64,000 nt of DNA. Source: Candidatus Levyibacteriota bacterium (lineage in GTDB: Bacteria > Patescibacteriota > Microgenomatia > Levybacterales > UBA12049). The stretch spans positions 67,411 through 131,410 of the forward strand of contig DAIDHK010000001.1 of the NCBI GenBank assembly GCA_027459725.1, written 5' to 3'. The notes below the pieces were generated by a model that saw only the letters and a list, made by a program, of their open reading frames with translations, was not told the DNA's origin and made no database searches. How positions within the stretch are numbered: position 1 is the first letter of the stretch; every line of letters starts with the position of its first letter. A program made the position numbers and the translations under genes. Positions 3,326 through 12,135 of this stretch are shown here, piece by piece.

Positions 3326-3628
3326 TTATTTAGCAGTTTTTTTGGCTGGACTCTTTTTAGATGCTTCTGATTTTTTGATTTCTACTGGTTTTTCACCGGC
3401 AACTAATTTAGATAAACTGGACTTTAGTCTGGCGGCTTTATTGTTATGAATAAGATGATTTTTAGCAGCTTTATCCACTGAACTAAAAGCTTTACTTAGA
3501 TTTTCTTTAGTCGGTTTCTGTCTAGCTTTCTTTAAGAGTTCACGATACACAACCCGTACCCGCTTATTTCTAAGCGTACGTTTTTTGTCCTGTCGCATTT
3601 TCTTTTTAGCGTGTTTCAGTAGTGGCAT
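3326..3628 (-). CDS. rpsT: 30S ribosomal protein S20 with Lys-rich C-terminal tail
   Basis: 'MPLLKHAKKKMRQDKKRTLRNKRVR...LIHNNKAARLKSSLSKL' matches the S20 pattern (ANIKSAKKR...LIHKNKAARHKS). Confidence 0.85.
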   Translation of the reverse strand: MPLLKHAKKKMRQDKKRTLRNKRVRVVYRELLKKARQKPTKENLSKAFSSVDKAAKNHLIHNNKAARLKSSLSKLVAGEKPVEIKKSEASKKSPAKKTAK

Positions 3629-8281: not shown

Positions 8282-9160
8282 ATGCACTCATCTAACTGGA
8301 AACGCCTGGTACTTATTGGATTCATAGTTATTTTATTAGTTGCTATTCCAGTTGCTATCTATCTGGTCAAAACAACCACCAACACACAATCTCATGCTAC
8401 CCCTGCGACTAACTTAACTTTTACACCTCCTTCAAGCAATCCAGCACCTATTACCGCAAATGTAGGAGATACGGTGCCATTAACTTTAAACATCGACCCT
8501 GGAACCAATCTGGTAACGTCAGTAAAGGTATATATTCAATATGATCCCACTAAACTTAGTGCCTCAAGCACAGCCTTCACTGTCAATGATTCAGCTTTTC
8601 CTGTAACCGTTCAGGGCCCTAGTTATTCTCCCGGTTCTATTTCCTTTTCAGTCTCTATTGGTGCAGACTATACCAAGGCTATCCAGTCTCCTACCAGTGT
8701 GGGTACACTGACCTTCACAGCTCTAGCTGCAACTGATCCCAACAATCCTACTCAGGTAAGTGTGACTACTCAATCGCAGGTCTTATCTGCCGGCCCCAAT
8801 GATCAATACCCTGAGAATGTTTTGTTATCACGACCTATTGCCTACATCGCCGTAAATGGACCCGCACAACCATCTACAACACCAACTCTAGTTCCTTCTG
8901 CTACTCTCACTCCTGTTCCCGGTGTTCCAACTGATACACCCGCACCAACGCTGGAGGCTTCACCTAGTGCAAGTCCTATTGCAATTGCTACTCCTACTAC
9001 TGCAGCTGTAGCAGTAATCGCTAATCCGACTGATACACCTGTTCCTCCACTGCCCACAGCGACTATTGCCGCTACAGGTTCTACTAATGTTACATTCGGT
9101 GCAGGTGCTGTATTAACTGTGTTATCTGTTATTGGCGGGGTAATTTTCTTCGTACTGTAG
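8282..9160 (+). CDS. membrane-anchored surface protein with cohesin-like beta domain, Pro/Thr-rich linker and C-terminal hydrophobic anchor
   Basis: N-terminal TM 'LVLIGFIVILLVAIPVAIYLV'. 'ITANVGDTVPLTLNIDPGTNLVTSVKVYIQYDPTKLSASS' resembles the cohesin-domain consensus. P/T-rich segment. C-terminal 'IAATGSTNVTFGAGAVLTVLSVIGGVIFFVL'. Confidence 0.55.
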   Translation: MHSSNWKRLVLIGFIVILLVAIPVAIYLVKTTTNTQSHATPATNLTFTPPSSNPAPITANVGDTVPLTLNIDPGTNLVTSVKVYIQYDPTKLSASSTAFTVNDSAFPVTVQGPSYSPGSISFSVSIGADYTKAIQSPTSVGTLTFTALAATDPNNPTQVSVTTQSQVLSAGPNDQYPENVLLSRPIAYIAVNGPAQPSTTPTLVPSATLTPVPGVPTDTPAPTLEASPSASPIAIATPTTAAVAVIANPTDTPVPPLPTATIAATGSTNVTFGAGAVLTVLSVIGGVIFFVL

Positions 9161-9215
9161 TAAAAAGAGATGGATTGCCAAATGTATTCTCCTATTTCAT
9201 ACCTTCGCAGATTTC

Positions 9216-9241
9216 GGCTTAATTAAGAATTAGTGTGGTAA
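9216..9241. repeat. IS left terminal inverted repeat (26 bp)
   Basis: GGCTTAATTAAGAATTAGTGTGGTAA; perfect reverse complement of 10306-10331. Confidence 0.85.
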
Positions 9242-9264
9242 ATTTAATCCTCTTTAGTATTTCT

Positions 9265-10251
9265 CTAGGATAACTTATCTTTGTTGTAGAAGTAAACGAA
9301 CCACTGCATAAATGTTTGCCATCGTTCAGTTTTTAATCCTCTGTGAGACAGCCATCTTTTCCCTAAGTGTCCAAATTGAGCTTCAATCTCATTGGTGGTT
9401 TTGGGCATAGTGGGAAAATCTAAGAATTTGAAACTGGTAAAGGGCAAATCTCTTAGAATACTCAAAGCTCGTCTTACTCCTTTATGGATAAACCACCAGT
9501 TGTAATCCAAATCATATTTCTTTTCTTTAAGATAGGTGTTGTGTGCTTTTATCCATGCAGTAACTTGCTCTACCCACCATCTCAGTGCCTCTTTTGATTC
9601 AATCAACCATACATGATCTGCCAGTAGCTTCAATTGTTTGACATGCTCACTTTTGGGATATTTGCCAATAGCATTGATAACGTCACGATGCAGATGCGCA
9701 AGACATATTTAGTGTGGTTTATGGGGAAACACCTCTCCTACAGCCTTCACAATGCCTGTGCCCCCATCTGAAACAACGCCAGTAAATCTGTAGCCTAGAA
9801 AGAGAAGATGTTTTAAATCTTTAGCAATTTTACTAGCAGCTTCTCTCCCCACAACTGAGATATGCAGAATTGTTAAGTTTTTAGATTGCCGATAGGCCAT
9901 TAAGATAAACCCTCGTTTTAGCCACAAGCCATCAAGGAGCAGAAAGATCTCAGTTTGATTTGATAGGTCAAGTAATGGAAGCTCGGGTGGTTTCTGAGAG
10001 AAGAATAGTTGAAACTTAGATTGTAGATATTGAGGAGTATATCCTGATTGATCTGCTAATTGTTCATAGGTATGTCCCCACAAAACATATTGGCGAAACA
10101 AAGAAAAGAAGTCTGTTTTTATACGTTGTCGTCGATAGACTCTTGTTATTCGACAGGTATTGCATCCGTATCTTTTCTTTCCATATGGAGTTTTTCCCCA
10201 GACAGTGAGTGGCTTCTTACAGGATATACACGTGGGTCGCTTATTACCCAT
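9265..10251 (-). pseudogene. IS transposase (N-terminal Zn-ribbon + DDE domain) interrupted by an in-frame TAA
   Basis: ORF 9709..10251 ('CISCKKPLTVWGKTPYGKKRYGCNTCRITRV' zinc ribbon; 'GVVSDGGTGI' DDE region) and ORF 9265..9633 ('TNEIEAQFGHLGKRW...FVYFYN', ISXO2/IS1595-like C-terminal motif) are in the same frame. They are separated by TAA at 9709-9711; the read-through junction is '...VFPHKPH*ICLAHLHRDVINAIGKYPK...'. Confidence 0.6.
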
Positions 10252-10305
10252 ATGTTATAACTTTAAAGCACTTTAGCTTGTCAAATCAAGAGAAACAGCG
10301 TATTA

Positions 10306-10331
10306 TTACCACACTAATTCTTAATTAAGCC
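10306..10331. repeat. IS right terminal inverted repeat (26 bp)
   Basis: TTACCACACTAATTCTTAATTAAGCC; reverse complement of the left TIR. Followed by the 8-bp direct repeat CAGATTTC (10332-10339), matching 9208-9215. Confidence 0.85.
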
Positions 10332-10341
10332 CAGATTTCTC

Positions 10342-12135
10342 TCATTTATTTTCCATCATCGAAAACAGTGCCTCCTGAGGCAAGTGAATTTTAGCTGAGG
10401 AAACCATACGTTTTTTACCTTTTTTCTGAGCTTCCAATAATTTATCTTTTCTTGTTCTGTCTCCACCTGACATTTTTGCCAATACATCTTTACGATAAGG
10501 AGGGATCTCCTCCCGGGCTACTATATTACCATTTACTACCGCCTGAATAATCTGGCGAAACTGCTGACGAGGCAATGACTCTTTTAATTTTTCTGCTTTT
10601 TGCCTGGCCACATACAATCCCTCATCACGATAAGCAAGTTCTGAAAGAACATCGATAGTGTTATCGTTAATTTTCACATCAACATTCACCAAATCCGCCT
10701 GTTTATATTCTGTTAGTTCGTAATCAATACTGGCATATCCTGAACTGACAGTTTTTAACTCAGCCGATAAACCGCGGATAAACATACTGTAGGGAAGTTC
10801 ATAACTCAAAGTCGCATAGGTATCATGATACTGCATATCTACTAAACTGCCTTTGCGCTTTTGACATACCGTCATCACATTACCCACATATTCATTAGGA
10901 ATATATACAGTGAGAAGCATATACGGCTCTTTCATTGTTCCATCTGAAAATTTTTCATATAAAACATTGGGCATGGTTAATAGTAACTCCAGTCCAAATT
11001 CCTGAGCCAGCCTTTCTTTGACTATTTCAGCATGCAGTAAACCAAGAAAACCCACACGAAAACCGCTGCCCAGATAAGCTGAGTATTCCTCAGTATATGT
11101 TAGTGAAGTATCATTAAGCATTAGTTTTCCCAATGATTCGCGTAAATGCACAAAATCAGATGCGTCTTTGGGATACATACCAAAAAACACCATGGGTTTG
11201 GGAGTAACATAACCTTGTAAAGGAAATACATTATTTCCTTTTTCGTCTTGTGCATATTCATTTTTCTGCCCAAAAGACAATTGTAATTTGAAATTTGAGT
11301 TTATAATCGTGTCTCCTACCCTTCCCTGACGAATGTCTTTAATACCAGTAATTACATAGCCAATCTCACCCGCCACCAGTCCTTTAGCTGGCTGTAGAAA
11401 AGGACTAAATGTCCCTACTTCTGTCACCGTTGTCGTTGTTCCTCCCTGAAATAATTTAATCTGGTCTCCTACTTTGATTGACCCGCCAAACATGCGAATA
11501 TATGTCACTACACCACGATATTCATCATATACGGCATCGAATACCAATGCCCTTAACGGTTTCTCTATTTCATTAACCGGAGGGGGCAACTTTGTGACAA
11601 TCCTTTCTAACAAAACCTGTACATTTTCTCCTGTTTTAGCGGATATAAAAATGATTTCTTCTTCTTTAAAGCCAAATACTGAAATCAGTTCTTTAACAAC
11701 TAATTCTGTTTGTGCATTGGGCAAATCTATTTTATTAATAACCGGTATCATGACCAGATTCTGTTTGCGGGCTTCGAAAAAATGCGCAACCGTTTGCGCC
11801 TGAATACCTTGAGTTGCATCGACTAATAACACAGCCCCTTCACAGGCAGCCAAGGTACGGGAAACTTCATATGAGAAATCTACATGTCCGGGGGTGTCAA
11901 TCAGATTTAAAATATATTCTTTACCATCAGATGCATGATAGACCATACGTACAGGAGCTAATTTAATCGTTATTCCCCGTTTTTTGCTTATCGCATTCAT
12001 ATCCAGAAACTGTTCTCCCAGCTTATCTTTGGCAATGGTTTTCGTAATTTCCAAAAAGCGATCAGACAGGGTAGATTTCCCATGGTCTACATGAGCAATA
12101 ATTGCAAAATTACGTACAAAGTCCGGTTCAATCAT
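10342..12135 (-). CDS. lepA: elongation factor 4 (LepA)
   Basis: 'NFAIIAHVDHGKSTLSDRFLE' G-domain plus the LepA-specific C-terminal domain; 597 aa. Confidence 0.95.
   Translation of the reverse strand: MIEPDFVRNFAIIAHVDHGKSTLSDRFLEITKTIAKDKLGEQFLDMNAISKKRGITIKLAPVRMVYHASDGKEYILNLIDTPGHVDFSYEVSRTLAACEGAVLLVDATQGIQAQTVAHFFEARKQNLVMIPVINKIDLPNAQTELVVKELISVFGFKEEEIIFISAKTGENVQVLLERIVTKLPPPVNEIEKPLRALVFDAVYDEYRGVVTYIRMFGGSIKVGDQIKLFQGGTTTTVTEVGTFSPFLQPAKGLVAGEIGYVITGIKDIRQGRVGDTIINSNFKLQLSFGQKNEYAQDEKGNNVFPLQGYVTPKPMVFFGMYPKDASDFVHLRESLGKLMLNDTSLTYTEEYSAYLGSGFRVGFLGLLHAEIVKERLAQEFGLELLLTMPNVLYEKFSDGTMKEPYMLLTVYIPNEYVGNVMTVCQKRKGSLVDMQYHDTYATLSYELPYSMFIRGLSAELKTVSSGYASIDYELTEYKQADLVNVDVKINDNTIDVLSELAYRDEGLYVARQKAEKLKESLPRQQFRQIIQAVVNGNIVAREEIPPYRKDVLAKMSGGDRTRKDKLLEAQKKGKKRMVSSAKIHLPQEALFSMMENK

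Follow-up and report, generated by a model that had tools for sequence, protein, structure and literature searches.

The element between lepA and a cohesin-domain gene in the 64-kb window (the whole stretch of DNA that was analysed) is best explained as an insertion sequence (IS) of the IS256/Mutator-like family that inserted at this site and whose transposase gene was then recently interrupted by a CAA to TAA mutation. The ends of the copy are intact, and it would not be mobile by itself. We assign this reading a probability of roughly 85%.

The element is present as a single copy in the window, and its coordinates are collected in Table 1. The 26-bp terminal inverted repeats (TIRs; GGCTTAATTAAGAATTAGTGTGGTAA) matched each other with 0 mismatches. 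No third match with up to three mismatches was found in the 64 kb, none was found in 100 shuffles, and an exact search of the genome contig collection with the TIR gave no match. The octamer CAGATTTC was present at both flanks as target site duplication (TSD). The perfect TIRs and identical TSDs claimed in the earlier note were thus borne out, as was an insertion only 2 nt from the lepA stop codon. The conclusion drawn there from the perfect ends, a recent transposition, was accepted in part: the insertion is taken to be recent, but perfect TIRs of 24-26 bp were also found in the closest relatives (loci L033, L037, and L039), which makes them a trait of the subgroup and by themselves no mark of youth.

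Table 1. Features of the insertion and of its flanking genes, in window coordinates
Feature	Position	Strand	Remarks
Cohesin-domain protein gene	8282-9160	+	Intact; convergent with lepA; stop codon 55 nt from left TIR
TSD, left copy (8 bp, CAGATTTC)	9208-9215	.	Identical to 10332-10339
Element (1,116 bp)	9216-10331		
IRR, 26-bp TIR at 3' end of transposase gene	9216-9241	+	Perfect match to IRL
Spacer between transposase stop codon and IRR (23 nt)	9242-9264	-	
Transposase codons 182-328 and TAG (9265-9267)	9265-9708	-	C183xxH186, helical insert, catalytic E288
In-frame TAA, codon 181	9709-9711	-	Replaces conserved Gln of PHQICLAH motif
Transposase codons 1-180	9712-10251	-	Zn ribbon (C8, C11, C30, C33); helical DNA-binding region; RNase H strands with D107 and D162
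Leader between IRL and transposase ATG (54 nt)	10252-10305	-	
IRL, 26-bp TIR at 5' end of transposase gene	10306-10331	-	Perfect match to IRR
TSD, right copy (8 bp, CAGATTTC)	10332-10339	.	Identical to 9208-9215
lepA (elongation factor 4)	10342-12135	-	Intact; co-oriented with transposase; LepA Pfam domains; stop codon TGA at 10342-10344, 2 nt from right TSD copy

The insertion site is a former gap of 57 nt between the two convergent genes, both of which are uninterrupted. Comparative evidence of insertion was obtained from the closest related genome (L107, GCA_027459745.1), whose LepA is 90% identical to the LepA of the window. The gene order PPIase-lepA-cohesin-groES-groEL is the same in both genomes, the element is absent from the relative, and the spacing between lepA and the cohesin gene is 77 nt there and about 1,104 bases more in the window. 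The spacer of the relative (L107:5780-5856) consists almost wholly of (AGTAAGT)n, repeated in tandem about 10 times, and is unrelated to the window spacer, and therefore no base-for-base alignment of the empty site was obtained.

The proposal that the insertion replaced the lepA terminator is possible but weak. A terminator scan of the intergenic DNA between lepA and the cohesin gene found no terminator-like site, and only a 5-bp hairpin was reported, within the 3' end of lepA (10369-10382). The reconstructed empty site can form only a weak hairpin with a U5 tract after it (-12.1 kcal/mol). The 5' arm of this hairpin spans the lepA stop codon and the target, and the insertion would part that arm from the remainder. 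Transcription may plausibly continue from lepA into the co-oriented IS. The transposase ATG is located 93 nt downstream of the lepA stop codon in the same frame, but TTAATTAA in the IRL gives an in-frame TAA in the lepA frame. A search for promoter-like sites yielded four, compared with 4.9 expected from shuffled sequence, and was not significant. Among the four is an outward-facing TTGTCA-17-TATTAT (10/12) at 10278-10306 on the plus strand, which lies in the IS leader and is directed through the TIR, antisense to lepA.

The transposase frame starts with an ATG at 10251 on the minus strand and comprises 328 codons up to a terminal TAG. As the earlier note had stated, it is split by one in-frame TAA and is otherwise continuous. 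The TAA does not, however, separate a DNA-binding part from the catalytic domain, as had been described there. It falls inside the catalytic core: it is located 3' of D107 and D162 and well upstream of E288, and the C(2)H signature begins two codons after it. Because of the upstream TAA, codons 182-328 would not be translated as part of the full protein.

The transposase has 480 database homologs, the best of them 82% identical. Among the 120 that were listed, nearly all are intact (309-343 aa), with more than 100 intact proteins of 325-343 aa. They are mostly encoded on contigs of 1.1-2 kb, as expected because repeats break assemblies. Residue 181 is Gln in 14 of 15 aligned homologs and Lys in the remaining one. 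At the DNA level, the equivalent codon in 93 relatives is CAA in 50, CAG in 42, and AAA in one, with no stop codon among them, and TAA differs from the majority codon CAA by one C to T transition. Downstream of the stop, all 62 near-invariant residues (at least 97% conserved in 116 homologs) are kept, compared with 50 of 51 upstream, the exception being Q96L. The mean identity to the homologs downstream of the stop is 76.8%, which we equate with the 77-79% of intact members. With CAA or CAG in 92 of the 93 relatives and no decay downstream, a very recent nonsense mutation gave the best fit of the four options that had been put forward for the TAA.

Disruptions also occur in relatives, where they are scattered over codons 62, 192, 233, 238, 270, and 296. 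One relative carries a TAA near codon 295, at the conserved Leu of GHLGKRW (L005:2269-2271), and two loci that hold the same insertion have a TAG at codon 238 (L071:2194-2196 and L095:860-862). In L099, the transposase is broken at multiple places. The independent in-frame stops in L005 and L071/L095 show decay by nonsense mutation to be common in the lineage. The window copy resembles other nonsense-inactivated IS copies in having a single inactivating point mutation in a copy that is otherwise intact, and nothing notable sets it apart from them. The string TTAGTGTGGT (10 nt) of the TIR (9230-9239) is repeated exactly at the stop site (9709-9718), and this repeat was weighed as a possible internal binding site or conversion tract. 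It was put down to chance, since more than 12 repeats of at least 10 nt occur in the same 1.8 kb; moreover, the match at 9709-9718 is 10/10 only through the C to T change itself.

According to the preferred reading, the IS would have inserted into the 57-nt gap with duplication of 8 bp of target. By analogy with IS256 and ISCth4, for which copy-out/paste-in transposition through a circular intermediate is known (PMC3942029, PMC7780238), the same route is expected here. A functional history would have come first, followed by one C to T transition that turned the CAA of Gln-181 into TAA. The product would now be at most 180 residues long; it would keep the Zn ribbon, the helical DNA-binding region, and D107/D162 and would be without the C(2)H signature, the helical insert, and the catalytic E288. 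Considering the DDE mechanism, such a fragment should not catalyze transposition, and the copy would therefore be unable to transpose by itself, whereas its intact ends could in principle still be moved by a related transposase. That the mutation is recent is suggested by the lack of other decay in the element, against which Q96L has to be counted.

The Q96L change (CTA at window positions 9964-9966, minus strand) affects a residue that is Gln in 116 of 116 full-length homologs, and it is probably a second damaging change in this copy. With more than one hit in the copy, the damage could precede or follow insertion. If the TAA predates insertion, a non-autonomous copy would have been mobilised in trans by an intact transposase that a sibling or a related IS supplied within that cell. 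Perfect TIRs and TSD next to an ORF with two damaging changes, Q181* and Q96L, would agree with such an event, and eight identical but frame-disrupted full-length copies of a related IS in Woesebacteria with different TSDs suggest that disrupted copies of this family can spread, provided that their frame shift is real. However, at a rate of two hits per roughly 114 conserved codons, only ~0.5 changes would be predicted for the TIRs and TSD, which together make up 68 bp. A broken gene should thus be compatible with perfect ends, and perfect ends would also be expected if the damage followed insertion. In addition, no transposase more than 82% identical was found in the protein collection, which holds LepA, the cohesin-domain protein, and the transposase fragments of the source contig. 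The fragments of 180 and 122 aa occur in this collection on the source contig only, and only one copy is present in the 64-kb window. Records thus show no intact helper belonging to the same IS, with the reservation that repeats may be missing from the assembly. Taken together, we regard mobilisation in trans of an already interrupted copy as unlikely.

A sequencing or assembly error that conceals an intact CAA is very unlikely. It would concern a single base, the region downstream is perfectly conserved, and the source is an assembly from an uncultivated lineage. On the other hand, the change of the invariant Gln-96 fits a copy that is genuinely drifting, and substitution errors are rare in consensus assemblies.

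Frame disruption close to the same site was observed in one other lineage. The Woesebacteria MAG MFD02832.bin.1.153 yielded eight full copies of a related IS (loci L012-L020) and two partial ones (L011 and L016). The full copies show 100% identity across 1,131 bp, and their perfect 8-bp TSDs differ from copy to copy (example: L013:2922-4052). In all of these copies as assembled, a C5 run (TAT CCCCC ACT; L013:~3537-3541) splits the transposase into two frames. A C4 run at this spot would restore Y-P-H-S-P-H-Q-I-C and is common in intact relatives; the nearest relative (L081, 80% nucleotide identity) is intact. Relative to the position that corresponds to the window TAA, the break lies 5-8 codons upstream. 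Possible explanations of the C5 run are a systematic homopolymer error in the consensus, mobilisation in trans, or a real frameshift that the element tolerates by slipping +1 at CCC-C. One identical copy (L012, CAVZPH010000003.1) is located at the end of a 379-kb contig in bin MFD02832.bin.3.209 of the same sample, labelled 'uncultured Actinomycetota', which suggests mis-binning, a chimeric contig end, or an IS shared between organisms. Beside some of the Woesebacteria IS copies, a fragment encoding no more than the first ~80 residues of a more distant relative (43-44% identity) was also seen (L015:53-292, L020:53-292, and L016:1090-1332); it may be the remnant of a different family member.

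The proximity of the two breaks raises the idea that, in this IS family of Patescibacteria, recoding or regulation recurrently takes place at the short linker between the second catalytic Asp (D2) and the C(2)H signature, an idea to which we attach very little credence. The eight Woesebacteria copies, recently transposed, would all need a +1 shift at the CCC-C run. If the idea were true, both the window copy and the Woesebacteria relative would by default make a Zn-ribbon/DNA-binding product of about 180-190 aa, and full-length transposase would arise only via rare read-through or +1 slippage.

For the window copy itself, an alternative reading is that the TAA is programmed, with low-level read-through or suppression setting the transposase dosage and the 180-aa product acting as a regulator. 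The frame is indeed otherwise open and conserved, the other lineage has its break 5-8 codons upstream in all of its copies, and programmed frameshifting is known for ISMich2, which belongs to a different Mutator-like IS group (PMC3942029). However, none of the 93 relatives shares the stop at codon 181, and the other disruptions are scattered. The break lies inside the catalytic core, unlike the breaks of IS1 and IS3, which are located at a domain boundary. UAA is also read by both release factors. In the host, TAA is the main terminator: it ends 25 of the 45 long ORFs in the window, TGA and TAG being used too. One stop flanked by at least 90 open codons on each side was found at three other places in the window. 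One of these places has ORFs with matches to two distinct families, ribosomal protein S20 and NUDIX. At the other two, no significant Pfam match links the ORFs; they have the look of separate neighbours, although Pfam gave no confirmation of this. A further gene split by a stop was thus not seen in the window. A reassignment of TAA in the host was rejected, because TAA is the commonest stop and no other gene is split by one. The 64-kb window contains no tRNA genes of any kind, and it is uninformative as to suppression. Programmed read-through accordingly found no support, and we consider it highly implausible.

The stop is hence best read as a recent nonsense mutation in an IS256/Mutator-like element from a divergent branch that has a Zn ribbon and is IS1249-like. 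The subgroup placement is approximate because the NCBIfam scores fell under the curated cutoffs. Pfam PF00872 (Transposase_mut) matched with 30.0 bits compared with a gathering cutoff of 21 (E 3.3e-7), no IS1595 domain was found, and PF00872 is also a precomputed match on most of the listed homologs. NCBIfam IS1249 (NF033544) aligned with residues 6-324 (E 4.9e-43) at 147.7 bits, below its cutoff of 300; the protein is a relative of IS1249 and no member by NCBI's criterion. NF048019 (IS256_Zn_var; 'IS256 family transposase, variant Zn-binding type') aligned with residues 16-319 (E 1.8e-31) at 109.6 bits, below its cutoff of 150. For the canonical IS256 model NF033543, 46.6 bits were obtained compared with a cutoff of 150.

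Hallmarks of the p-MULT transposases are a C/D(2)H signature after D2, an alpha-helical insert of 99-138 aa between D2 and the catalytic Glu, and direct repeats of 8-9 bp (PMC3942029). Their DDE triad is carried on an RNase H-like fold that has D1 in beta1, D2 within or right after beta4, and E within or right before alpha4 (PMC3942029). The element agrees with the p-MULT transposases in the PF00872 match above cutoff, the DDE triad, the C(2)H signature, the insert, the 8-bp TSD, the TIRs, and the fold. In an alignment of the element with 15 homologs, D107, D162, E288, and C183-L-A-H186 are invariant, and the distance from D162 to E288 is 126 aa. An AlphaFold model (pLDDT 68.9, moderate confidence) placed D107 in beta1 (103-111), D162 just after beta4 (158-161), and E288 within a helix (285-293), with residues 184-278 mostly helical. 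The top Foldseek match of this model was the ISCth4 transposase (6xgx_A; E 2.3e-6, probability 1.00, TMq 0.43, 306 columns). By sequence profile, the sole meaningful match in the PDB was likewise ISCth4 (6xg8), a weak one with an E value of 0.1.

The assignment to IS1595 made in the earlier note has a practically negligible chance of being right: the element shares with that family the N-terminal Zn ribbon, the 8-bp TSD, a length of ~1 kb (here ~1.1 kb), and termini starting with GG, and the generic IS1/IS1595 Zn-ribbon model NF050000 matched weakly (E 0.024; 15.2 bits compared with a cutoff of 28), but a 4-Cys ribbon is generic, an 8-bp TSD is equally typical of IS256-type elements (PMC3942029), no IS1595 DDE model matched at E ≤ 1 in Pfam or NCBIfam, where IS256, IS1249, and Mutator models matched strongly, and the catalytic domain bears the C(2)H signature and 126-aa helical insert of Mutator transposases, with ISCth4 as best fold match.

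The likeness to the IS256 family (p-MULT 1; prototype IS256, structure ISCth4, PDB 6xg8/6xgx) further includes TIRs of ~26 bp starting with GG and one ORF that fills the element. Members of this family have a size of ~1.3-1.5 kb and a transposase of ~400 aa, whereas the element described here is shorter (1,116 bp, 328 aa), has a 4-Cys Zn ribbon at its N terminus, and shows 13% identity to ISCth4. With the IS1249 group and NF048019, it has in common a near full-length alignment, the Zn-ribbon N terminus, and a Mutator-type core. It differs from them, apart from the scores below cutoff, in forming a separate branch that is found almost only in Patescibacteria/Microgenomates assemblies.

Genome matches were almost all from Patescibacteria, namely Levy-, Roizman-, Woese-, and Gottesmanbacteria, and the best named relatives of the window LepA are Levybacteria. 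The termini GGCTTAATTA...GTGTGGTAA, a length of 1.10-1.14 kb, and 8-bp TSDs recur across the 106 loci compared, with TSDs of 8 bp in at least 15 relatives. In many of the relatives, the ATG is ~79-80 nt away from the end of the element, as in the window copy. Literature searches brought up no account of the lineage from Patescibacteria.

For the copy studied here, the outcome is a family call corrected from IS1595 to IS256/Mutator-like and a puzzling stop codon that becomes a case of ordinary recent decay. On its own this matters little, and the added value is descriptive: Microgenomates/Patescibacteria widely carry a compact Zn-ribbon lineage of IS256-type elements of ~1.1 kb, which have conserved GGCTTAATTA termini and duplicate 8 bp. 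The small genomes of these organisms are usually thought to be poor in mobile elements, and one member of the group carries a burst of at least eight identical copies.
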